DNA of 64,000 bases, taken from the NCBI GenBank assembly GCA_044223515.1, contig JBGALV010000001.1, positions 74,864-138,863 on the forward strand, in the 5' to 3' direction. The translations under genes were made by a program, and so were the position numbers. Positions within the stretch are counted from its first letter, which is position 1; every line of letters starts with the position of its first letter. Positions 215-46,399 of this stretch are shown one piece after another. The notes beneath the pieces are model-generated. The model did not search any database and was not told where the DNA came from. It saw nothing but the letters and a program-made list of their open reading frames with translations. The DNA is from Alphaproteobacteria bacterium. Its GTDB lineage: Bacteria; Pseudomonadota; Alphaproteobacteria; SHVZ01.

Positions 215-1360
215 ATGTCCAGCTACGGGACGACCGTGTTCGAGGTCATGTCCCGCCTCGCCATGGAGCATGGCTCGATCAACCTCGGCCAAGGGTTTCC
301 GGACGGAAACGGGCATCCCGAGGTGGTCAAGGCCGCACAGGCTTTCCTCGACGACCGGCCGAACCAGTACCCGCCGATGATGGGCGTGCCGGAGCTGCGC
401 CAGGCCGTCGCGCGCCACGACAAGCGCTTCCATGGTCTCGACGTCGACTGGCAGTCCGAGGTGATCGTGACCTCTGGCGCCACCGAGGCGCTGGCGGCGT
501 GTCTCTTCGGCCTGATCGAGCCCGGCGACGAGGTCGTGCTGTTCGAGCCGCTCTACGACTCCTACCTGCCGATCGTGCGCCGCGCCGGCGGCATCCCGAA
601 GCTGGTGCGGATCTCTCCGCCCGAATGGAAGCTCGACGAGAAGGCGCTCCGCGCTGCGTTCTCCGACCGCACCAAGCTCGTGCTGCTCAACAACCCGCTG
701 AACCCCGCCGCCAAGGTCTTTACCCGTGCCGAGCTCCAGCTGATCGCCGACCTGGTGCTCAAGCACGACGCGGTCGCGGTCTGCGACGAGGTCTACGAGC
801 ACATCGCCTTCTCCGACGCGCCGCCGTTCATTCCGCTGATCTCGCTGCCGGGCATGCGCGAGCGGTGCCTCCGGATCGGCTCGGCCGGCAAGACCTTCTC
901 GCTGACCGGCTGGAAGGTGGGATACGTCACCGCGGCGCCCGAGCTCCTGCGCGCCGTCACCAAGACGCATCAGTTCCTGGTCTTCACCACGCCGCCGAAT
1001 CTGCAGCGGGCAGTCGCGGCCGGGCTCGACCTCGGCGACGAGTACTATCGCGACCTGGTCGGCGACATGCAGGCCAAGCGCGACCGCTTCGCCAAGGGAC
1101 TCGCGGAGATAGGATTCGGCGTGCTGCCGAGCCAGGGGACGTATTTCATCACCGCCGACTTCCGGCCGCTCGGATTCAACGGTACCGACGAGGATTTCTG
1201 CCGCCACATCACAGTCGAGGCCAAGGTGACGGCGGTTCCGGTCAGCGCTTTCTTTACCCCGGGGGAACCCCCGCGAGACTTCGCCCGTTTTTGCTTTTGC
1301 AAGAAGGACGAAGTCTTAGACGCCGCCCTCGAAAGATTACTGAAACACTTCAAGGGTTAG
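215..1360 (+). CDS. PLP-dependent class I/II aminotransferase (methionine/aromatic aminotransferase YbdL-like)
   Basis: ORF 104..1360 trimmed to the ATG at 215 (MSSYGTTVF...). The N-terminal GQGFPD motif, the central SAGKTFSLTGWKVGY motif (PLP-binding Lys region) and the length of about 381 aa are typical of fold-type I aminotransferases. Confidence 0.85.
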   Translation: MSSYGTTVFEVMSRLAMEHGSINLGQGFPDGNGHPEVVKAAQAFLDDRPNQYPPMMGVPELRQAVARHDKRFHGLDVDWQSEVIVTSGATEALAACLFGLIEPGDEVVLFEPLYDSYLPIVRRAGGIPKLVRISPPEWKLDEKALRAAFSDRTKLVLLNNPLNPAAKVFTRAELQLIADLVLKHDAVAVCDEVYEHIAFSDAPPFIPLISLPGMRERCLRIGSAGKTFSLTGWKVGYVTAAPELLRAVTKTHQFLVFTTPPNLQRAVAAGLDLGDEYYRDLVGDMQAKRDRFAKGLAEIGFGVLPSQGTYFITADFRPLGFNGTDEDFCRHITVEAKVTAVPVSAFFTPGEPPRDFARFCFCKKDEVLDAALERLLKHFKG

Positions 1361-4042: not shown

Positions 4043-4430
4043 GATCCCTATCCTCAAGTTCGGCCGTTCGCTGCTGGTCACCATCCAGGTCGACATGCAC
4101 GACCAGCTGGCGATGACGCTGCAGGACGATCTGACCTCGCGCCTGGTGAAGGAAAGGGCGCGCGGCGTCCTGATCGACATCTCGGCGCTCGAGATCGTCG
4201 ACTCGTTCATGGGGCGCGTGCTGAACAACATCGCCGCCATGGCGAAGATCCTGGACGCGGTCACCGTCGTCGTCGGCATGCGTCCGGCGGTCGCGATCAC
4301 GCTGGTCGAGCTTGGGCTCGACCTCCCGGGCGTCAAGACCGCGCTCAACGTCGAGCGCGGCATGGACCTGATCCGGGCCAGCATCGAGGAAGAATACTCG
4401 GCCGCCGATGTCGACATCGACTCCGACTGA
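4035..4430 (+). CDS. rsbS: RsbS-like STAS-domain stressosome scaffold / anti-sigma-factor antagonist
   Basis: A 131-aa single STAS domain with the conserved ...LEIVDSFMGRVL... Ser motif. It overlaps rsbR by 8 bp. Confidence 0.8.
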   Translation: MDRIPILKFGRSLLVTIQVDMHDQLAMTLQDDLTSRLVKERARGVLIDISALEIVDSFMGRVLNNIAAMAKILDAVTVVVGMRPAVAITLVELGLDLPGVKTALNVERGMDLIRASIEEEYSAADVDIDSD

Positions 4431-4815: not shown

Positions 4816-5795
4816 TGATCCGCATCGAGCACGACTCCGATGTCGGCGTCGCCAGGCGCTCGGCCCGCGAGGCGGCGGAGTCCGCAGGCCTCGACGAAGA
4901 GGATGCCGGACGCGCCGCCCTGGTGGCGACCGAGGCCGCGACCAACCTGGCGCGGCATGCCAGCTCCGGTGCGTTCTTCGTTCGTCGTCTCGATCCGGCC
5001 GAAGGGCACGGCGTCGAGATGGTGGCGGTCGATCGTGGCCCCGGCATCGCGAACCTCGCGAACTCGATGGTCGACGGCGTCTCGACACGCGGTACGCCGG
5101 GCCAGGGCCTCGGGGCGATGAAGCGCATCGCCGATCTTCTGACCATCGACTCGCGCCCAGGCGAGGGAACCATCGTGGTCGCCCAGGTCCGCAACGGCAG
5201 CGCGGCCGCACCGTTGCCGATGGCGGTCGGCGGGATCGCCGCCGCCATTGCGCCCGACGGATGCGGAGACGCTTTTGCCTTCTCGCCGAGAGTGCGCGGC
5301 GTCGCGGTCATCATGATCGACGGCCTCGGCCATGGCGCCGATGCCGCGGTCGCGGCCGAAGCGGCGGTCGAATGCTTCCATCGGCGCAGCACGGACGACC
5401 TTGTGAATCTCTTTCAGGCGCTCGACCGCGAGCTCAGGCCGACGCGCGGTGCTGCGATCGCCATCGCCCATGTCGACCTGCAGGACAGGGCCGTGCACTT
5501 CATGGGCGTCGGCAACATCTCCGGGATCCTGATCTCGGGCGGCAAGGCGCGGAACATGGTGTCGCACAACGGCATCGTCGGCCACACGATGCGCCGCGTG
5601 CAGCAGTTCGACTATCCGTTCGCCGAAGACCCGACGGTGATCCTGCATTCCGACGGGGTAGGGACCCGCTGGCAGCCGATGGCTCTGATCGAGCGCGGGC
5701 TGACCAACCCCACCGCGATCGCGGCGCAGCTCTGGCGAAGCGACGCGCGCGGCCGCGACGATGCCGGCGTCGTCGTCGTCCGGGGGCGGACATGA
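4806..5795 (+). CDS. fusion protein: N-terminal RsbT/RsbW-like GHKL domain plus C-terminal PP2C (SpoIIE/RsbX-like) phosphatase
   Basis: The N-terminus has E..N..H, DRGPGI and GQGLG motifs, so it is GHKL-like. The C-terminus has IDGLGHGADAA, the PP2C metal-binding motif. It overlaps rsbT by 10 bp and the downstream kinase by ATGA. Confidence 0.75.
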   Translation: MEIVIRIEHDSDVGVARRSAREAAESAGLDEEDAGRAALVATEAATNLARHASSGAFFVRRLDPAEGHGVEMVAVDRGPGIANLANSMVDGVSTRGTPGQGLGAMKRIADLLTIDSRPGEGTIVVAQVRNGSAAAPLPMAVGGIAAAIAPDGCGDAFAFSPRVRGVAVIMIDGLGHGADAAVAAEAAVECFHRRSTDDLVNLFQALDRELRPTRGAAIAIAHVDLQDRAVHFMGVGNISGILISGGKARNMVSHNGIVGHTMRRVQQFDYPFAEDPTVILHSDGVGTRWQPMALIERGLTNPTAIAAQLWRSDARGRDDAGVVVVRGRT

Positions 5796-7874
5796 GCGAG
5801 CTGGTGCTGGCCACTCGCGTCGCCGAAGAGGGCGATGTCGTGCGCGCACGCCAGCAGGCGCGCCGGGTCGCGAGCCTGCTCGGCTTCGAGGGCCAGGATC
5901 AGGTGCGGATCGCGACCGCGGTCTCCGAGACGGCCCGCAGCGCGCTCGAATACGCCCATGGCGGCAGCATCGAGTTCGCGGTGGAGCGGCGAACCAAGCC
6001 GCAGCTTCTGATCGTTTCCGTGACCGATGCCGGGAAGAACGTGCATCCCGACAAGGCCGAGGAGCGGGATCATGGTTTCCTCGGCGCCCGGCGGTTGATG
6101 GACAAGGTCGATGTCGACATGACCGAGGCGGGGACGGTCGTTCGCCTGACCAAGCGCTTCCCCCGGACGGCACCGGCGGTCACCTCCAAGGTGATAGCCA
6201 AGATCTCTGCCGCCGTCGAAGGCGAGGCGAGCAACCCGCTGGAGGAGCTGGCCCGCCAGAACCGCGAGCTGATGCAGTCGCTCTCCGACAACAAGCGTCA
6301 GACCGACGCGGTCCAGCAGCTGAACCAGGAGCTGCAGGAGACCAATCGCGGCGTCGTCGCCCTCTACGCCGAGTTGGACGAGAAGGCGGCGAGCCTGAGG
6401 CGCGCGGACGAGCTCAAGTCGCGCTTCCTTTCCGATATGAGCCATGAGTTCCGGACGCCGCTGAACGCGATCCTGGCGCTTTCCAGCCTGTTGTTGGACG
6501 AGACCGACGGAAGTTTCGACCGAGCAGCGTCGCCAGGTGGTCTATGTCCGCCGGGCCGCCGAGTCGCTGAGCGGACTGGTCAACGACCTTCTCGACCTTG
6601 CCAAGGTCGAGTCGGGGAAGATCGAGATCCACCGCGCGCAGTTCGACGTGGCCGACCTGACCAGTGCGCTTCGCGGCATGTTCCGGCCGCTGGTGATCGG
6701 TGACGTCTCGCTGGTGATCGAGGACCCGGACGGGCTCGCGATCGTCTCGGACGAAGGCAAGCTCTCGCAGATCCTGAGGAACTTTCTCTCGAACGCAGTC
6801 AAGTTCACCGAGCAGGGCGAGATCCGCCTGTGCGTCACGGAGCCCAAGCCCGGCGTCGTCCGGTTCGACGTACGTGATACCGGCATCGGCATCGCGCCTC
6901 AGGATATCGAACGGATCTTCGATGATTTTGTCCAGGTCGACGGGCCGCGCCAGCGCCGTGTCCGCGGCACGGGCCTGGGGCTGCCGCTGTCGAAGAAGCT
7001 TGCCGGGCTCATCGGCGGGCACATCGAGGTGACGAGCGAGCCGGGCAAGGGCTCGACTTTTTCCATGATCCTGCCGGACGGCCTGACCGAGACCCCGGAC
7101 ATCGTGATGGAGCATGCAGCCGAGCTGACGAAGCAGTCGCCGGTTCTGGTGGTCGAGGACGAGCAGGCGGACCTGCTGGTCGCGGTGACCCTGCTGGACG
7201 CGGCGTCGATCCGAAGCCGGCAGGCGCGCACCTTGGCCGAGGCGCGGGCATCGATCGCCGCCGAGCGGCCCGCGGCGATCGTCCTCGACATCCGCTTCGA
7301 CAAGGGCGATGCCTGGACCTTCCTCGAGGAGATCAAGTCGTCGCCGGAGACTGCGGAGATCCCCGTCCTGGTGATGACTGCGACCGACGATGAGGAGCAT
7401 GCGGTCAAGCTGGGTGCTGAAGCATTTGTGAAAAAGCCCGTGGATCGACGCAACCTTGTGCGCTCGCTGCTTCGGCTCTTGAACAGGAAGCCTGCGCTCA
7501 ACGTCCTGCACGTTGACGACGACGAAACCGCCCGCTACGCGGTTCAGCAGATGCTGTTCGGCACCGGCCGGCATCTTCGCCAGGCTGAGAGCGTGGAGCA
7601 GGCGATGGCGTCGATCAGCCGCGATCAGCCGGACGTGGTCCTTCTCGATCTGCACTTTCCGGATAGCGACGGCTATGCGATGCTTTCCCGGCTGCAAAGC
7701 GACCCGGTACTGCGGATTCCAGTCATCATGCTGACGTCGGCCGTCCTCGATGATGCTGACAGACACCGCCTGGCCGGAGCCTTCGCCATTCTTTCCAAGC
7801 GCGATCTCGCCCGCGACACCTTGATCGACTCGATCGACGCCGCCTCGGCCTTCGGACACGGAGGCGCAGCATGA
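5792..7874 (+). CDS. hybrid sensor histidine kinase with an apparent +1 frameshift near 6509 (degenerate GHKL/RsbW-like N-domain, coiled coil, HisKA, HATPase_c, REC, REC)
   Basis: It starts MSELVLATR at 5792, in the frame of ORF 5261..6703. The H-box FLSDMSHEFRTPLNAI lies in frame A. The rest of HisKA plus HATPase_c and two receiver domains lie in ORF 6537..7874, in frame B. The shift occurs between 6506 and 6512. Confidence 0.7.
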
Positions 7875-8905
7875 CCGCGCATCCGGCGATCCTGGTGGTC
7901 GATGACGACGAGGCATCGCGCTACATCAAAACCCGTGTGCTCGAAAGCCAGGGCTTCGACGTCTCCCAGGCGGGAACGGGTGAAAAGGCGCTCGACCGCA
8001 TCGAGGAGAAGACGCCCGACCTGGTCCTGCTGGACGTGAAGCTTCCGGGGATGGATGGGATCGAGGCCTGCCGCATCATCAAGGAGCGGTGGCCGTCCGT
8101 CTTCGTGCTTCATACCTCCGCGGCCTACCGCAAGCCGTCGGACCGCACGCGCGGCCTCGACAGCGGCGCCGACGGCTATCTCGCCGAGCCGGTCGAGCCG
8201 GGCGAGCTCGTCGCCAACGTCAAGTCGCTGCTCCGCATCCGCCAGGTCGAGAACGAGCTGCGGGCGGTGGTTGAGCGCAACCAGGTGCTTCTCCGCGAGG
8301 TCCAGCACCGCACGATGAACAACCTGCAGCTGGTGATCAGCTTCCTCAACCTCGAGTCCCGCGGGCTTTCCGACCAGCATGCGAAGGACCGCATCAAGGC
8401 GGTGATCCAGCGCGTCAGCGCGCTGGCGGCGGTCCACCACCACCTCTACAGCCGGGGCGCGATCGACCGCATCGACTTCGGCTCGTACGTCGCCGACCTG
8501 GTCAAGGACATCGGCAACGCGACGGGAGAGGAGCGCATCGTCTTCCGCACGCAGGCGGATCCGGTATGGATGGAGGCGGATCGCGCCATCCGCCTCGGCC
8601 TCGTGGTCAACGAGCTCGTGACCAACTCGATCAAATACGCCTTTCCCGGCGGGGAAAGCGGCCAGATCAGCCTGAGCCTGCATGCGACGGGCAACGAGGC
8701 GGTACTGACGGTCGAGGACGACGGGCGCGGCTTCGAAGGCAGCAGCTCCACCGGATCCACACGCTCGGGCCTCAGCCTGAGCCAGGCGCTGGCCGAGCAG
8801 TCGGATGCCGAGCTGATCCGGGACGAGACGACGCGCGGCACACGCTGGCGGATCGTTCTCCACAGCCCCGAGGCGCGCCGCGCCGTAGCGCGCGAGGGCC
8901 GCTAG
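7871..8905 (+). CDS. response-regulator receiver fused to a HisKA_2-type histidine kinase (REC-HisKA_2-HATPase)
   Basis: An N-terminal REC domain (ILVVDDDE...DLVLLDVKLPGMDG), then HRTMNNLQLVISFLNL (HisKA_2 H-box), then an ATPase domain with NELVTNSIKYA. There is an ATGA overlap with the upstream kinase. Confidence 0.8.
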   Translation: MTAHPAILVVDDDEASRYIKTRVLESQGFDVSQAGTGEKALDRIEEKTPDLVLLDVKLPGMDGIEACRIIKERWPSVFVLHTSAAYRKPSDRTRGLDSGADGYLAEPVEPGELVANVKSLLRIRQVENELRAVVERNQVLLREVQHRTMNNLQLVISFLNLESRGLSDQHAKDRIKAVIQRVSALAAVHHHLYSRGAIDRIDFGSYVADLVKDIGNATGEERIVFRTQADPVWMEADRAIRLGLVVNELVTNSIKYAFPGGESGQISLSLHATGNEAVLTVEDDGRGFEGSSSTGSTRSGLSLSQALAEQSDAELIRDETTRGTRWRIVLHSPEARRAVAREGR

Positions 8906-8913
8906 GCATCGGC

Positions 8914-8943
8914 CCCCCTCTCCCTGCGCAGCAGGGGGAGGGG
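8914..8943. terminator. GC-rich hairpin between convergent genes (putative bidirectional terminator)
   Basis: The arms cccctctccctgc and gcagggggagggg are a near-perfect inverted repeat. The hairpin lies between the kinase stop at 8905 and the fadD stop at 8962. There is no clear U-tract. Confidence 0.3.
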
Positions 8944-8961
8944 ATCCGAGGAGTGCGCAGC

Positions 8962-10714
8962 CTACGCCTTCTGGACCTTCGCCGCTTCCTCGGCGACGAG
9001 TTCCTTCTTCGACAGTTTCCCGATCAGCGTTTTCGGCAGGGCGGCGCGGAATTCGATCTCGCGCGGCATCTCGATCGGATTGAGCTTGTCCTTGAGGAAC
9101 TGGGTCAGCTCCTCCGAGGTGAGCGTCTTGCCGGCCTGCAGCTTGACGAAGGCCTTCGGGCTCTGGCCGCGATAGCTGTCGTCGACGCCGATCACCGTGC
9201 ATTCCTCGACCGCGGGATGCTGGTAGACCGCTTCCTCGACGACGCGCGGGTAGACGTTGAAGCCGCTGCAGATGATCAGGTCCTTCATCCGGTCGACGAT
9301 GAAGAAGTAGCCGTCGTCGTCCATCATCGCGATGTCGCCGGTCCTGAGCAGGCCGTCGACCATCTGCTGCTGGGTCGCCTCGGGCCGTCCCCAGTATCCG
9401 GCCATCACCTGCGGCCCGCCGATGCAGATCTCGCCACGCTCGCCCTTCGGCACCACCTTGGTCGCATCCGCGATGTCGCGCAGCTCGACCCGGGTCAGCG
9501 GCAGCGGCAGGCCGATCGATCCCGCCTTGTTGACGCCGCCCAGCGGATTGCAGTGGGTCACGGGCGAGCTCTCGGTCAGGCCATAGCCCTCGACCAGATG
9601 GCAGCCGGTCACCTGCTCGAAGCGCTGCTTGACCTCGAGCGGCAGCGGGGCGCCGCCGGAGATGCAGTTCCGGATCGAGGAGAGGTTGCGCGGCTGCTTG
9701 GCGACCGCGCCGTTGAAGGCCGTGTACATGGTGGGCACGCCCGCCATGAAGGTCGGCTTTTTGGTCTCGATCACCTTCAGCGCCGCCTCGACCTCGAAGC
9801 GCGGCAGCATCACGATCTCGGCCCCGACCGACAGCATCTGGTTCTGGATCACCGTCATCGCGAAAACGTGGAAGAACGGCAGCACGCCGAGGACGCGCTC
9901 CTTGCCGAACTCGAAGGTGTGGAACCAGCGCCGGCACTGGATCGCGTTGGCGTAGAGATTGGCGTGGGTCAGCATCGCCCCCTTGGGGATGCCGGTCGTG
10001 CCGCCGGTGTACTGCAGCACCGCCGTGGTCTTGACCGGGTCGATCGCGACCGCTCGGTAACGGCCGTCGTTGGCCGTGAGCTCGGCATAGCGCGGATGCG
10101 CCTGGTCGCGCGGCGGCGTCGCAAGGTCCTTGCGGCGGACGATCGGGAACAGCAGCTTCTTGATGAACGGCAGCGCATCCGCCATCGAGCAGAGGACGAT
10201 CGTCTTCAGCGGCGTCGTCCCCAGCATCGGCTGGAGCTTGGCATAGAGGGCCTGCAGGTCGAGCGTGACCATCACCTCGGTGCCGGAGTCCCGGATCTGC
10301 TGCTCGATCTCCTTGGCGACGTAGAGCGGGTTGAAATTGACGACGATGCCGCCCGCCTTGAGGATCCCGAAATAGGCGATGATGAAGTAGGGGCAGTTCG
10401 GCAGGAACAGGCCCACACGGTCGCCGGGCTTCAAGCCCCGGTCCTGCAGCCCCTTGGCGAAGCGGTCGACCTGGGCTGAGAGCTCGCCATAGGTCGTCTT
10501 CCTGTCGAGGAAGTCGATCGCGCTCTGGCCGGGGATCCGCGAGGAAGTCGATCGCGTTCTGGGCGGGGATCCGCCTGACCGGCTCGTCGAGCAGCTCGTA
10601 GAGCGGCTTCGGATCGATCGGGTCGTGCCAGTCGACCGAGGCCGGATAGAGGGCCGAGTAGTCGCGGCCGCCGCTTGCGATCGACAATGCCCCAGTTGTC
10701 CCGGCGCCAGTCAT
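8962..10714 (-). pseudogene. fadD: long-chain-fatty-acid--CoA ligase (FadD family) disrupted by a 34-bp tandem duplication frameshift
   Basis: ORF 8962..10434 encodes the AMP-binding core (TGGTTGIPKGAML, etc.). The N-terminus (MTGAGTT...YELLDEPVRRIPAQNAIDFL) is in another frame upstream. Removing one copy of the duplicated 34-mer at 10507-10574 restores a continuous FadD of about 572 aa. The ATG at 10714 is preceded by GGGAGG. Confidence 0.75.
10507..10574. repeat. imperfect 34-bp tandem direct repeat (2 copies, 2 mismatches) inside fadD
   Basis: Copy 1 (10507-10540) is gaggaagtcgatcgcgctctggccggggatccgc. Copy 2 (10541-10574) is gaggaagtcgatcgcgttctgggcggggatccgc. Confidence 0.9.
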
Positions 10715-10778
10715 TCTGCCTCCCGTTTTCGTTCTTCCCATCCTGCGGGGGAGGGCGACCGAGGGCAATGGGGAAGCG

Positions 10779-11759
10779 TCAGGCGAAGTGGCAGGCGGCC
10801 CGCTGCCCGGGCTTCACTTCCCTGAGGGCCGGGTCCTCGGTCTGGCAACGCGCCTGCGCCATGGGGCAGCGAGGCGCATAGGAACAGCCTTTCGGCGGCG
10901 GCGGAATCGTCTCGGTCGAGACCGCGGCGAGCTTCACGCCGCGCCGATCGCGCCGGCGCGTGCCGCCGGCGAGGCCCGGGATCGCCGCCATCAGCGCTTT
11001 CGTATAGGGATGGCGGGGATCGGCGAAGAGATCCGCCGACCGCGCCTGCTCGACGATGCGGCCCTGGTACATGACCGCGACCTCGTCGCAGACATGCTCG
11101 ACCACGGCGAGATTGTGGCTGATGAAGAAGTAGGTGACGCCGTGCTTCTGCTGCAGGTCCTGCATCAGGTTCAGCACCTGCGCTTGAACCGAGACGTCGA
11201 GGGCGGAGACCGGCTCGTCGGCGACGATCAGCTTCGGCCGCGTGATCAGCGCGCGCGCGATCGCGATGCGCTGCCGCTGGCCGCCTGAGAACTCGTGCGG
11301 ATAGCGCGTCGCGGCATCGCTGGGAAGACCGACCTCGTCCAGCGCCTCGGCGACCTTCTCGGCGCGCTCCGCGGCGCCCACCTGGATCGCGAGCCCGTCC
11401 AGCGGCTCGGCGACGATGCGGCCGACGGTATGACGCGGATTCAAGGATCCGAACGGATCCTGGAACACCATCTGGAAGTTCCGCCGGTGGCGGCGAAGGT
11501 CGAGATCCGCCAGCGCGAACGGATCCTTGCCGACGGTCTCGATGACTCCCTTGTCCGGCCGGTCGAGCGCCATGACCAGGCGGGCCAGCGTCGACTTGCC
11601 CGAACCGGACTCGCCGACGACGCCGAAGCTCTTGCCGGTCGCGACCGTGAAGCTGATGCCGTCGACCGCCTTGATCCAGCGCCTCGGCGCGAACGGCGAG
11701 GGGCGCGGCAGCGGGAAGTGGCGGAAGAGATCCTGGCCGAAGACGAGCCTGTCGGTCAT
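10779..11759 (-). CDS. dppF: dipeptide/oligopeptide ABC transporter ATP-binding protein (DppF/OppF-like)
   Basis: It carries Walker A (GESGSGKST), the signature LSGGQRQR and a C-terminal oligopeptide-ABC extension. It starts MTDRLVFG at 11759. There is an ATGA overlap with dppD. Confidence 0.85.
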
Positions 11760-12740: not shown

Positions 12741-13562
12741 TCATCGTGACCTCGAGAGGCGTGGGTCGAGCGCGTCGCGGAGGCCGTCACCCAGCAGGTT
12801 GAGCCCGAGGACGACGATCATGATCGCCGCACCCGGGTAGATCGCCAGCATCGGCGCGCGGAAGAGGAAGGTCTGGGACTCGTTCAGCATCCGCCCCCAG
12901 CTCGGGTTCGGCGGCTGGGTCCCGAGGCCGAGATAGGAGAGCCCGGCCTCGGCCAGGATCGCCAGCGCGAAGTTGATCGTCGCCTGGACGATCAGCACGT
13001 TCGAGATGTTGGGCAGCACGTGCTCGAGCGTGATCCGGACGCTGCCCTTGCCGGCGGCGCGGGCGGCGAGGATGAAGTCGCGGGCGAGGATGGCGTTGGC
13101 GGCGCCTCGCGTGATCCGGGCGAAGACCGGGATGTTGAAGATGCCGATCGCCAGGATCGAGTTGAAGGTCCCGGGGCCGAGGATCGCGGTGATCAGGATC
13201 GCTGACAGGATCGCCGGGAAGGCGAAGGTGAAGTCGGCCATCCGCATCACCAGGTCCTCGACCCAGCCGCGCTTGGCGGACGCCAGCAATCCTAAGCCCA
13301 CGCCGGTCAGCACGCCGATCGTGACCGCGACGAGGCCGACCGCGATCGAGTTTCGCGACCCCACCAGGATCATCGAGAAGACGTCCCGGCCGAAGTGGTC
13401 GGTACCGAACCAATGCGTGGCAGAGGCGGGCGCGAGCCGGCCGGGCACGTTGATCTTTGCCGGCGGATGCGGCGTCCAGAAATAAGAGAGGAGGGCCGCG
13501 GACAGGACGATGCCGACCAGGGTCAGGCCGATCACGAAGTTCCGCTGGCGGAGGCAGCGCAT
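12741..13562 (-). CDS. dppC: dipeptide ABC transporter permease (DppC-like)
   Basis: A multi-TM permease with the binding-protein-dependent-transport signature. The alternative start is at 13583. Confidence 0.8.
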   Translation of the reverse strand: MRCLRQRNFVIGLTLVGIVLSAALLSYFWTPHPPAKINVPGRLAPASATHWFGTDHFGRDVFSMILVGSRNSIAVGLVAVTIGVLTGVGLGLLASAKRGWVEDLVMRMADFTFAFPAILSAILITAILGPGTFNSILAIGIFNIPVFARITRGAANAILARDFILAARAAGKGSVRITLEHVLPNISNVLIVQATINFALAILAEAGLSYLGLGTQPPNPSWGRMLNESQTFLFRAPMLAIYPGAAIMIVVLGLNLLGDGLRDALDPRLSRSR

Positions 13563-13596
13563 GATGATGCCGTCGCGCTTCATCGGCCCTCGCGCT

Positions 13597-14541
13597 TCAT
13601 CTGGCTGTCCTCAGGCGCGGGTCGATCACGGCGTAGAGCAGGTCGACGACGAAGTTGATCACCACGACCTTGGCGGCCAGCAGCACCACCACGTCCTTCA
13701 CCACGATCAGGTCGCGCTGGTTGATCGACTGGAAGATCAGGCGGCCGAGGCCGGGCAGGTAGAAGACGTTTTCGATGATGATCGTGCCGGCCAGCAGGTT
13801 TGAGAACTGCAGGCCCATGATCGTGATCACGGGGATCAGCGAGTTCCGGAGCACGTGGCGCCACAGCGTCTGCGTGCGCGTGAGCCCCTTGGCGCGGGCG
13901 GTGCGGACGAAGTCCTCGCGCAGCACCTCGAGCACGGCCGAGCGGGTGACGCGGGCGAGGATCGCCGCCTGCACCAATGCCAGGGCAAAGGCCGGCAGGA
14001 TCAGCGACTTGAGCGCGACCGGGCCCTCGCTCCAGCCGGGGAAGCCGCCGGCGGGAAGCCAGCCCAGGAACACCGCGAACAGCAGGACCAGCAGGATCGC
14101 GAACCAGAAGTTCGGGATCGCGATGCCGAGCTGGGTCGCGGTCATCACGCCGTAGTCGCCGATGGTGTTGTGCTTGGAGGCGGCGTAGACGCCCAGGGTC
14201 AGCGCGATCAGCGTCGTCAGGCTCATCGAGATCAGCGCCAGCGGCAGGGTCACCACCAGGCGCTCGCCGATCAGCTCGGCGACCGAGGAGCCGTAGGTGT
14301 GGCTGATGCCGAGGTCGCCACGTACGAGCCCGCCGACCCAGATGAAATAGCGCTCGACCGGCGGCAGGTCGAGGCCGAGCTTGGCCCTGAGGGCCGCCAC
14401 CGCGTCCGGCTGCGCGTCGATGCCGAGCATCAGCAGCGCCGGGTCGCCCGGCAGCACTTCCAGCACCAGGAACACCACCAGCGAGGTGGCGACCAGGGTG
14501 GCGATGAAGGCGGCGAGCCGGCGGAGCGTGAAGGAGAGCAT
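13597..14541 (-). CDS. dppB: dipeptide ABC transporter permease (DppB-like)
   Basis: A 314-aa polytopic permease with the typical DppB N-terminus (MLSFTLRRL...). Confidence 0.85.
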   Translation of the reverse strand: MLSFTLRRLAAFIATLVATSLVVFLVLEVLPGDPALLMLGIDAQPDAVAALRAKLGLDLPPVERYFIWVGGLVRGDLGISHTYGSSVAELIGERLVVTLPLALISMSLTTLIALTLGVYAASKHNTIGDYGVMTATQLGIAIPNFWFAILLVLLFAVFLGWLPAGGFPGWSEGPVALKSLILPAFALALVQAAILARVTRSAVLEVLREDFVRTARAKGLTRTQTLWRHVLRNSLIPVITIMGLQFSNLLAGTIIIENVFYLPGLGRLIFQSINQRDLIVVKDVVVLLAAKVVVINFVVDLLYAVIDPRLRTAR

Positions 14542-30771: not shown

Positions 30772-31689
30772 TCATTCGCGCCCCTGATGTTCCCAAAAAC
30801 CTGAAGCCCCAAAAGAAACGGGCCGCCGGAGAACCGGCCCGTCCGGCGTGGCGACGAGGTTGTCGTTCTCGCCGCGACCCGAGGTCTGGATCGTGCTGGC
30901 CGCGATGCCTTCGCGGACCAGGGCGGCCCGGACGGAGGCGGCGCGGCGCTCGGACAGACGCTGGTTGTAGTCGGTCGGGCCGGAGCGGTCGGCATGGCCG
31001 GTCGCCACGATCAGACGGACGTTGCCGCGCTTCGCGTCGTCGGCAGCCTGCCGGATGATGGCAGCGGCCTCAGGCGTGATGTCCGACCGGTCGAAGTCGA
31101 AGAACACCAGGTAGGTGCGCGGAGCCGGTGCCGGCGCGGCAACCGGGGGCGGCGTGACCACCGTGGTCTGCTGGGTGACCCAGAGCGACGGGTTGAGGCC
31201 GCAGAGCTCGACCTCCTCGTAGTCGTCCTCGGCCATCTGCTCGAGCCAGCACTCGAAGGCGACCTGCTGGCCGGCGGTGGTGATCGGATCCCGCGCGCGA
31301 TTGGCGGCGATCCACGCGCTCAGGCGAGCGCGATAGTCGAGGGCGGTGTCGAGGGTGCGCTTCGACTGGAAGCCGACGACCCAGTGGCCGAACATCGGCG
31401 GATGGCCGCGGCGGCGGTCCCATTCCATCGGATCGCCGACCGGGACCGGCTGGCCGGTGCCGGCCATGACCGACTTCTCATAGAAGATGCCGGCCGGGAC
31501 GTAGTCCCAGTGCCAGGTGCTGTCCTCGAACTGGCCCAGCTTGCGATAGCCGTCGGCGAGCGCCTGCTGGAACGGGTCCGAGTTGGGACGGAGGTTGTGG
31601 GAGTCGGTGCGGGCGGGCTCGGCGATCCACGTGCATCCCGCGGTCAGCAGGACGGCCGCGAGAGCCGGGATAAGGCGATGGAGTTTCAT
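30772..31689 (-). CDS. OmpA-family lipoprotein paralog with replaced C-terminus (possible pseudogene)
   Basis: It starts MKLHRLIPALAAVLLTAGC at 31689. The OmpA_C region is about 90% identical at DNA level to the neighbouring copy. The last roughly 13 codons, the stop and the hairpin are deleted, so the ORF reads on through the remnant hairpin into former intergenic sequence (...PVLRRPVSFGASGFWEHQGRE). Confidence 0.65.
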   Translation of the reverse strand: MKLHRLIPALAAVLLTAGCTWIAEPARTDSHNLRPNSDPFQQALADGYRKLGQFEDSTWHWDYVPAGIFYEKSVMAGTGQPVPVGDPMEWDRRRGHPPMFGHWVVGFQSKRTLDTALDYRARLSAWIAANRARDPITTAGQQVAFECWLEQMAEDDYEEVELCGLNPSLWVTQQTTVVTPPPVAAPAPAPRTYLVFFDFDRSDITPEAAAIIRQAADDAKRGNVRLIVATGHADRSGPTDYNQRLSERRAASVRAALVREGIAASTIQTSGRGENDNLVATPDGPVLRRPVSFGASGFWEHQGRE

Positions 31690-45079: not shown

Positions 45080-46399
45080 TCAGTCGAGCCAGCGATCAAT
45101 TCTGTCGCGCAGGCGGTACCAGGCTCCGACGGCCGGCAGGAACCAGGGGCGGCCGCTGTAGAGCGGGCGTGTAGGGAATCCCAATCCGTCGAACGCGGAC
45201 ACGCGGTTGGTGCCGCCGGCGATCTTCAGCGCAACCTGATGGCCGAGCCAGGTCTGCATGATGACGCCGGAGCCGTTGCAAGCGACGGCGTAGTGCATGC
45301 CGTCGTTCATGCCGAGATGCGGCATGAAGTCGAAGGAAAACGCCACGTTGCCGGTCCAGGCATGGGTCAGCTTTGTGTCGCTCAACTGCGGGAAGACCGT
45401 CGTCATGAAGCGGTGCAGGATCGGCGCGCTGGTCTTGGCGCCGACCTGGGTGAACCGCGCGCGCCCGCCGAACAGTAGGCGCCGGCCGTCCGGCGAGAGG
45501 CGGAAATAGTAGAGGATGCGCTTGGTATCGGCGATCACGCGCTTCTTCGGAATCAGCTCGGCGATCACCTTCTCCGGCAGCTCCTCGGTCGCGATGATGA
45601 AGCTCGCGACGGGAATCAGCCGGCGCCGGATCCACGGCGTCACGTGGCCGGTGTAGCCATTGGTCGCGATCATGACTTCGCGTGCCTCGACATTGCCCCG
45701 CGGCGTCGCCAGCAGGAATCGCCCCTGCGCGCCGGAGATGGCCTCGACGCGCGTGTGGCCGATGAGATTGGCCCCGGCACGCGCCGCCGCCTCCGCGAGG
45801 CCGCGAACATAGAGCGCCGGATGCAGGCCACCGGCGCGGTTGACGACGATGCCGCCGCGATAGAAGTCGGTGCCGATCTCCTCGCGCTGGCGCGGTTCCG
45901 GGATGACCTCGACCGAGTGCCCGGACGTTTCGGCGACCCAGGCGGCGCGGCGCTCGAGCATGCCGAACTGCTGGCGGCTGTGGGCGCCGACGAAGCGGCC
46001 GAAGCGCTGGTAACGGGCATCGATGCCCTCGCGCTCGAGGATCTGCTCCATATGGCCATAAGCCTGGCCGGCTTCATCGATCATCCCTTTGGCGCGGTCG
46101 GCGCCGTAGGTTGCGGTCAGGTCGATGCCCTTGCCGACATTGATGCCGCCCGAGACCATGCCGGCGTTGCGCGATGACGCCCCGTAGCCGATCGCCTCGG
46201 CGTCGAAGACAGTGCAGGAGATGTTGCGCCGCGCGAGCTCGAGCGCGCAGGAGAGCCCGGCATAGCCGCCGCCGACGATCGCCACGTCGGTCTTCTCGGG
46301 AACCGCCGGCGTCTCCGGCGGCGAGGCCTGGCCCGGGTCGGCCGCCTCCCACCAGTAGGGCGTCTCCTTGAAGTCGGACGCGAAGATCCGGGCGCTCAT
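45080..46399 (-). CDS. FAD-dependent oxidoreductase (DadA / gamma-glutamylputrescine oxidase-like)
   Basis: It starts MSARIFASDF at 46399. It has the Rossmann motif VAIVGGGYAGLSCA. Confidence 0.85.
   Translation of the reverse strand: MSARIFASDFKETPYWWEAADPGQASPPETPAVPEKTDVAIVGGGYAGLSCALELARRNISCTVFDAEAIGYGASSRNAGMVSGGINVGKGIDLTATYGADRAKGMIDEAGQAYGHMEQILEREGIDARYQRFGRFVGAHSRQQFGMLERRAAWVAETSGHSVEVIPEPRQREEIGTDFYRGGIVVNRAGGLHPALYVRGLAEAAARAGANLIGHTRVEAISGAQGRFLLATPRGNVEAREVMIATNGYTGHVTPWIRRRLIPVASFIIATEELPEKVIAELIPKKRVIADTKRILYYFRLSPDGRRLLFGGRARFTQVGAKTSAPILHRFMTTVFPQLSDTKLTHAWTGNVAFSFDFMPHLGMNDGMHYAVACNGSGVIMQTWLGHQVALKIAGGTNRVSAFDGLGFPTRPLYSGRPWFLPAVGAWYRLRDRIDRWLD

Follow-up and report, generated by a model that had tools for sequence, protein, structure and literature searches.

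The window, meaning the entire stretch of 64,000 nucleotides that was analysed, carries on its minus strand a gene for a predicted acyl-CoA ligase that is interrupted in codons 47-58 by a short tandem duplication (Table 1). The upstream neighbours of this gene form a five-gene ABC transporter of the Opp/Dpp type. Downstream and in convergent orientation lie a gene for a response-regulator/HWE-type kinase and one for a hybrid histidine kinase. The linkage of transporter and ligase is conserved across the clade, whereas that of the kinase pair is not. No second ANL ligase that might serve as a compensating paralogue is found within the 64-kb window. The expression signals of the ligase gene, as predicted from its sequence, are still intact, the Shine-Dalgarno-like element ahead of the start codon having been kept.

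Table 1. Positions, in the window, of the ligase gene, its duplicated unit and the associated features, together with the lesion in the nearby kinase gene.
Feature	Position	Strand	Remarks
Whole ligase gene	ATG at 10714 to stop 8962-8964	-	ORF seamless after removal of either copy
Native N-terminal 58 codons (M1-L58)	10541-10714	-	In frame with ATG 10714; tblastn of residues 1-78
Ligase remainder, residues 48-572 and stop	8962-10540	-	+1 relative to the start codon; AMP-binding and AMP-binding_C; motifs
Shine-Dalgarno-like GGGAGG	10719-10724	-	4 nt upstream of the ATG; conserved in close relatives
Copy 1 (5' in gene orientation), GCGGATCCCCGCCCAGAACGCGATCGACTTCCTC	10541-10574	-	Start-codon frame R-I-P-A-Q-N-A-I-D-F-L
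Copy 2 (3' in gene orientation), GCGGATCCCCGGCCAGAGCGCGATCGACTTCCTC	10507-10540	-	Ligase-body frame I-P-G-Q-S-A-I-D-F-L
Native hairpin/quasi-palindrome, TCGACTTCCT-CGAC-AGGAAGACGA	10494-10517	-	10-nt arms, 9/10 paired, 4-nt loop
Product from the ATG as assembled	7673-10714	-	58 native and 955 out-of-frame residues
Residual 490-aa ORF, gene-caller product P0121	8962-10434	-	TTG start = L83
Private frameshift (net 2-nt deletion), GACGGAAG^TTTCG against GACGGAAAGCTTTCG in relatives	6506-6518	+	HisKA region of the hybrid histidine kinase

When either copy of the duplicated unit is dropped in silico an uninterrupted ORF of 572 aa results, as the sequence-only reading had proposed, and the FadD-like identity given there to the repaired protein is borne out by its domains, motifs and family models. 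Pfam domains are recognized at residues 45-430 (PF00501, E 4.9e-96) and 481-555 (PF13193, E 2e-19), and the core motifs are complete, with the P-loop TGGTTGIPKG at 225, GYGLTE at 365, the hinge motif RTGD at 446 and, with the C-terminal lysine of PKTxxGK, PKTLIGK at 549. Residues 17-564 match positions 15-568 of the 575 in the family model NF004114 (E 6.5e-153), and the solved ANL structures matched are 8weu and 8wev (E 5e-87) as well as 1ult and 3g7s. The product can safely be predicted to be an ANL-family acyl-CoA ligase of the FadD/PimA type. In its end-to-end alignment, its two domains and its motifs it resembles the long-chain-fatty-acid--CoA ligases of that family (E. coli FadD type; NF004114/PRK05605, NF005220), and the solved relatives 8weu, 8wev, 1ult/1v26 and 3g7s are structural counterparts of the repaired 572-aa protein. 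It is unlike them in that the window gene is out of frame as assembled and in that its scores fall under the curated cut-offs. None of the NCBIfam cut-offs for named long-chain-fatty-acid--CoA ligases or PimA is reached by the repaired protein, which scores 510 bits against 766 for NF004114, 437 against 476 for the subfamily NF004837 and 436 against 706 for TIGR03205 (PimA). Because its scores lie under every one of these curated thresholds, no orthologue or substrate is assigned to the ligase. The term FadD-like is therefore used here for a family resemblance and not as an orthology call, and the candidate substrates include long-chain fatty acids, dicarboxylates and others.

The duplication consists of two adjacent 34-mers at 10507-10540 and 10541-10574 that are 94% identical, and a reading of the window confirmed both these coordinates and the two differences that had been described earlier. 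The mismatched letters are C at 10523 against T at 10557 and C at 10529 against G at 10563. On the forward strand the two units read GAGGAAGTCGATCGCGCTCTGGCCGGGGATCCGC (10507-10540) and GAGGAAGTCGATCGCGTTCTGGGCGGGGATCCGC (10541-10574), and at the junction of the copies ...GATCGACTTCCTC is followed directly by GCGGATCCCCGG.... The register of the repeat is ambiguous by 1 nt, the division into 10506-10539 and 10540-10573 being equally good, which corresponds to a junction microhomology of 1 nt. With a score of 124 in Tandem Repeats Finder (TRF) the 34-bp pair is the top tandem repeat of the 64-kb window, the runner-up scoring 72. No further site in the window matches the 34-mer with up to 3 mismatches, and 100 shuffles gave 0 matches.

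Because of the 34-nt duplication, the deposited sequence does not hold one uninterrupted ligase reading frame: the frame shifts by +1 after codon 58, and the body of the ligase lies in the +1 frame. The N-terminal stretch MTGAGTT...AIDFL is indeed shifted against that body, as noted previously, with the correction that it comprises 58 codons (M1-L58) rather than 57. The frame of the start codon stays open for 1013 codons with no stop, a long stop-free run that is typical of G+C-rich sequence. The residual 490-aa ORF has no obvious Shine-Dalgarno sequence and is without the first 82 residues of the enzyme, among them the earliest of the conserved strand-helix elements in the ANL N-domain (residues 49-139 align with 8weu 17-107).

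That an active enzyme is still made from this arrangement, by programmed +1 ribosomal frameshifting or from a functional split gene whose second part is initiated internally at TTG 10434, is so improbable as to be negligible. Both frames are open through the duplication, and a +1 shift anywhere within it would yield a full-length protein with an 11-residue insertion. Against such recoding, the site lacks a slippery heptamer, an RF2-type site and any homopolymer run of at least 6, its zero frame has no stop codon to stall ribosomes, and the best Rfam match (E 0.52) is irrelevant. All relatives have one continuous ORF, so there is no conservation of a split arrangement either. Programmed slippage, which the sequence-only reading had left open, is effectively excluded by the lack of a slippery site, an RNA element and conservation. 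Internal initiation is opposed by the loss of the conserved start of the N-domain from the 490-aa ORF and by the missing Shine-Dalgarno sequence.

Relatives of the ligase locus were gathered by a protein search and by a scan of species-representative genomes, and the loci come from metagenome-assembled genomes (MAGs) of uncultured freshwater Alphaproteobacteria. The homologues found by protein search are full-length (560-581 aa) and 77-97% identical, with both domains present in all. The 34-mer occurs as a single copy in 13 of 13 related loci, which include five independent assemblies encoding P0001, a 97% identical protein known from 15 contigs; the closest genomes compared share about 90% DNA identity over about 10 kb. 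In the DNA alignment, each of the seven close relatives has a clean gap of 34 nt where the window has one of its copies, and in a BLAST comparison with the locus L001 its positions 4142-4175 are aligned twice. All 13 relatives read ...R-R-[IV]-P-x-Q-N-A-I-D-F-L-D-[RK]-K, once each. The truncated 490-aa product is recorded from a single NCBI contig, its 90% cluster otherwise holding only intact 572-aa proteins, and a 21-mer scan of metagenome contigs for the duplication junction gave 15 matches, all of them chance hits in unrelated soil genes (...ALIDFLADPKAAAVY...). The duplication is present in the deposited sequence and is unique to this contig among the sequences compared, in a gene that is otherwise pristine.

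The same alignments reveal how the two copies relate to the native sequence. Codon 51 is hypervariable among the relatives (G, D, S, E, A), and codon 53 is AAC (Asn53) in all 13. Where the nearest relatives (L001, L037, L038-41) show GGC-CAG-AAC, the codons are GCC-CAG-AAC in copy 1 and GGC-CAG-AGC in copy 2, and a synonymous CCC for proline is common to both copies. A single substitution separates each copy from GGC-CAG-AAC; in the native frame each of the two changes the encoded residue, that in copy 2 altering the invariant Asn53. Changes or errors that strike at random and without selection around a single true copy give this pattern.

The state of the remainder of the gene bears directly on the age of the lesion. 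Against L001 the repaired gene has a dS of 0.256 and a dN of 0.019 (omega 0.075); its 1559 aligned nt are free of gaps, and the ligase has no further indel or stop. With L006 as outgroup, 29 nucleotide changes fall on the window lineage, among them 4-7 replacements, and omega on this lineage is 0.05-0.10. Of the replacements, the variable N-terminal tail accounts for two, and conservative exchanges (L163 for V, D455 for E) for two more; the real differences between the window and L001 are non-synonymous in only 21% of cases, against both of the mismatches between the copies. For two differences to be expected in 68 nt, 0.029 neutral substitutions per site are needed, which is about 50% of the synonymous divergence of the lineage. 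Ageing to that extent predicts about 38 extra replacements against the 4-7 observed (P(<=7) about 1e-9). If all observed replacements are conservatively placed after inactivation, the probability of at least two differences is 0.02-0.07, and the best joint probability is 0.028.

The sequence-only reading had taken the mismatches as the mark of a duplication old enough to have started diverging, and hence of a genuine pseudogene. An established pseudogene in neutral decay would account for copies that are 94% and not 100% identical and for the non-synonymous nature of both differences. This explanation is nevertheless improbable, and the earlier interpretation is not sustained in the face of the low omega, the few replacements and the shortfall of those that ageing predicts. 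The motifs, the Shine-Dalgarno sequence and the start codon are intact as well, and each of the signs of an old pseudogene that were looked for (a raised dN/dS, further disabling lesions, a lesion shared with the 13 relatives) is absent. The duplication is, on the evidence of these substitution patterns, evolutionarily instantaneous, full purifying selection having apparently acted on the gene until now, and ageing is no plausible cause of the mismatches. They would then have come from another source, such as errors, mixed alleles or error-prone synthesis at the birth of the duplication. The companion argument, that two mismatches speak against an assembly stutter, holds for an exact stutter, which is excluded; the mismatches are compatible with other technical origins, such as an unmerged overlap of contig ends that carry errors or strain variants, or a polishing artefact.

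A further imperfect tandem duplication, of 17 bp, was found through a 17-nt gap against L001 at 13569-13602, at the junction of two permease genes, where in gene orientation CAGATGAAGCGCGAGGG is followed directly by CCGATGAAGCGCGACGG. The independent assembly L037 has this duplication too, with one mismatch, and it is absent in L001, L006, L003, L004, L005 and L024, in which stop and start overlap as ATGA. L001 and L037 are 98.65% identical, yet they differ in the 17-bp duplication. It is harmless at its permease-gene junction, and its distribution among these genomes shows that short imperfect duplications arise or vanish quickly in this group. At the ligase itself, where the region has a folding z-score of -2.5, the 34-bp unit is bordered at its 3' end by the native hairpin, a plausible site of stalling or template switching.

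A scan of the window for frame breaks, in which a codon model trained on Pfam-confirmed genes was combined with a seven-state Viterbi procedure, returned only two mid-gene breaks in 64 kb: the ligase duplication and a switch at 6508/6509. The latter lies in the hybrid histidine kinase gene (5792-7874), 4 kb from the ligase lesion, and reflects an uncompensated deletion in the window at a site that reads GACGG(A/G/C)AA(G/A)CT(T/C)TC(G/C) in L001, L037, L042 and L006. When two bases are restored, a seamless kinase of 694 aa results that is 90% identical to that of L001. Omega of the kinase is 0.10 on either side of the lesion, and the gene is unbroken in all relatives that have it. As judged from these comparisons, the window holds two private and apparently fresh frameshifts, 4 kb apart in constrained genes, and is otherwise clean.

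A technical origin of the 34-bp duplication during contig building is tentatively preferred, at just short of an even chance and only slightly ahead of a real, very recent mutation. Under the mechanism proposed, the true genome would hold one copy, ...CGG ATC CCC GGC CAG AAC GCG ATC GAC TTC CTC GAC..., as the nearest relatives do, and two pieces covering the site (contig ends, or consensus or polishing windows) would have overlapped by 34 nt. If each piece carried one low-coverage base error or minor-strain variant, the overlap could have been left unmerged, and the pieces, laid end to end, would present two near-identical 34-mers and a +1 frame shift. The organism would then make a normal 572-aa ANL-family acyl-CoA ligase, and the 2-nt deletion in the nearby kinase would be a second local consensus error. 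This origin is favoured because the duplication is seen in no relative and its product is recorded from one contig only, because the rest of the gene is undecayed and ageing is unable to supply the mismatches, because one error or variant in each piece would naturally account for these mismatches, for the single step between either copy and GGC-CAG-AAC and for the altered Asn53, and because a second private frameshift lies nearby in a constrained kinase. It is favoured also because the related genomes are low-coverage MAGs (3.8, 5.5 and 6.0 according to their contig names), low coverage and the choice of assembler being documented causes of spurious frameshift pseudogenes, and many frameshift pseudogenes being assembly errors (PMC11017572). 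Several observations weigh against a technical origin. The assembly is not generally error-prone, with only the two frame breaks, and the duplication site shows neither Ns nor any other join signature. De Bruijn-graph assemblers cannot invent junction k-mers, which must be present in the reads, and the 68-nt structure fits within one short read, so that a plain short-read assembly should have had the junction in its reads. The 17-bp duplication in common with L037 represents a genuine mutation class in the lineage, and the native hairpin at the 3' end of the unit offers a biological mechanism.

Only slightly less favoured is a real and very recent loss of function, in which 34 nt would have been duplicated in the sampled population and the ligase knocked out; the event would be replication slippage or a template switch, for which the hairpin may have been the trigger. 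The mismatches would in this case derive from error-prone synthesis at birth, from recombination with other alleles or from strain variants mixed by the assembler; the allele may segregate or have been recently swept, as in an enrichment or a bottlenecked population, and the deletion in the kinase would likewise be real and recent. The arguments that count against an artefact count in favour of such a mutation: the otherwise clean assembly, the need for junction k-mers in the reads, the hairpin adjoining the end-point, and the 17-bp imperfect duplication, which belongs to the same operon region, is independently confirmed and, by its polymorphism in so similar a genome pair, indicates that such events are frequent. 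The non-synonymous nature of both mismatches is likewise as expected with selection off. On the other hand, new tandem duplications are expected to be perfect, and neutral ageing would yield two differences in 68 nt, in the absence of other decay, with a probability of no more than about 0.03-0.07. The junction microhomology is just 1 nt, and the duplication occurs in no other assembly or metagenome contig scanned. Nor would the consensus of a natural population usually show two strongly constrained genes freshly knocked out within 4 kb of each other.

A special case of the real mutation, premised on high rates of gain and loss of short tandem duplications, is that the 34-bp duplication is a contingency-type on/off allele of fatty-acid activation that reverts by slippage, a reading that is very improbable. 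The polymorphism of the 17-bp duplication between L001 and L037 and the intactness of the rest of the ligase gene, which fits a transient OFF state, would agree with it, as would the fact that the number of copies in tandem repeats is phase-variable in another G+C-rich bacterium, M. tuberculosis, in which such repeats lie in promoters (PMC12817950). Like those phase-variable repeats, the window repeat is short, belongs to a G+C-rich genome and might be reversed by slippage, and the region has a further short duplication that is polymorphic. It is unlike them in being coding and not in a promoter, and its copies are only two and imperfect, by which slippage is lowered. No copy-number polymorphism was seen at the site in the 13 relatives or in the 15 contigs of the nearest relative, and there is no sign of selection for switching. 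It is hardly to be expected that the unit toggles the ligase off and on in natural freshwater populations, possibly together with the neighbouring sensor kinase.

Whichever of these origins applies, the phenomenon is ordinary, a slippage-type knock-out of recent date or else a pseudogene that is spurious, and the enzyme family concerned is a common one. A classic class of spontaneous mutation comprises the frameshifts that arise when replication slippage or template switching duplicates a short stretch in tandem. The ligase lesion resembles these in being head-to-tail, of a length that is not a multiple of three, coding and bordered by a hairpin at one end-point; it differs from them in that 2 of 34 positions differ within a gene that shows no age and in its single nucleotide of microhomology. 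With the spurious pseudogenes described by Cooley & Wright 2024 (PMC11017572) it shares a frameshift confined to one assembly, a conserved gene, a second case nearby and a lineage of low-coverage MAGs. Single-base indels and internal stops make up most of those cases; an imperfect duplication of 34 bp is a less typical form of error, and just two breaks in 64 kb set the window apart from them as well.

The main relevance of the locus is for annotation quality, in that neither this ligase, with its role in fatty-acid activation, nor the neighbouring kinase ought to be counted among the organism's ancient losses. In metabolic reconstructions based on this genome, both the ligase and the nearby hybrid histidine kinase are best entered as probably present or as very recent losses. 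An imperfect short duplication is by itself no indication of age, and setting the mismatch count against the state of the remaining gene provides a simple age test, of which the present case is a compact worked example. If the duplication is true, it would be one more ordinary slippage-type gene inactivation.

Several further candidates were considered and set aside. A chimeric join of two strains was sought as a step in identity at the junction; identity to relatives is 92% upstream, 94% in fadD and 87% in the kinases, and since this pattern is the same for L001, L037 and L042 the regional differences, alike in all relatives, reflect gene-specific constraint and speak neither for nor against a chimera. 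Functional coupling of the broken ligase and the broken kinase was rejected for want of conserved linkage, since L003, L004 and L024 do not have the kinase pair next to fadD. Mismatches templated by a quasi-palindrome were also considered; in the imperfect palindrome around CGATCG, which spans 10537-10566 and is 72% complementary, the G at 10563 adds a single pair, too weak an effect to serve as evidence. The 56-nt spacer at 8906-8961, examined as a possible further duplication, proved instead to be a lineage-specific G+C-rich palindrome.

The junction between the two permease genes carries an imperfect tandem duplication of 17 bp, through which the overlapping ATGA stop/start of the permeases has become a 13-nt spacer. 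This duplication is common to the window and to the independent assembly L037 (at about position 117-150), but the related locus L001, whose identity to L037 is 98.65%, lacks it, as do five other relatives. The duplication is therefore a natural one that is quickly gained or lost.

A 2-nt deletion frameshifts a 694-aa hybrid histidine kinase within its HisKA region. More specifically, comparison with the relatives shows GACGGAAG^TTTCG in the window versus GACGGAAAGCTTTCG in the relatives, and the site of the deletion lies inside an AAGCTT palindrome as found in L001 and L006. Once repaired, the gene is seamless, with an omega (dN/dS) of 0.10.

In L001, L037 and L042 the ligase gene shares a 4-nt overlap with that of the response-regulator kinase; short inserts of differing kind are present in L005 and L006. 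The spacer found here, with its G+C-rich palindrome, may be a lineage-specific insert that is bidirectional and terminator-like.

Features of the window, with coordinates and strand
Feature	Position	Strand	Context
Early loss of codon-model signal	230-1360	+	coordinates of the gene
Early loss of codon-model signal	45080-46387	-	coordinates of the gene
Early loss of codon-model signal	30772-31689	-	coordinates of the gene
2-nt deletion, private to the window, uncompensated	6506-6518	+	within gene 5792-7874
Spurious ORF, non-coding frame	7673-10768	-	overlaps ligase gene
Spurious ORF, non-coding frame	8566-10479	+	overlaps ligase gene
56-nt spacer	8906-8961		between convergent stops of ligase and response-regulator kinase
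Palindrome CCCCTCCCCCTGC-TGC-GCAGGGAGAGGGG	8913-8942		within the spacer
17-bp imperfect tandem duplication	13569-13602		between minus-strand genes 13597-14541 and 12741-13583

The two spurious ORFs that overlap the ligase gene reach 1031 aa and 637 aa, and many others occur across the window; such very long spurious ORFs are typical at high G+C content. ORF length is of no use here as evidence of coding, since the shifted start frame of the ligase itself runs for 1013 codons without a stop. The codon-model signal ends 70-130 nt ahead of the stop codon in three genes; frame problems at their C-termini are possible, and low-scoring C-terminal tails are the probable explanation.

Independent Logan contigs that carry the ligase gene of the nearest relative, numbering at least four and reportedly fourteen, share the same end point. 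It falls within the second ABC ATPase gene, with the start of the ligase lying about 490 nt downstream of it. This is a recurrent assembly break, probably due to repeated ATPase motifs or strain variation. Position 1 of the Logan contigs L038-L041 corresponds approximately to window position 11200.
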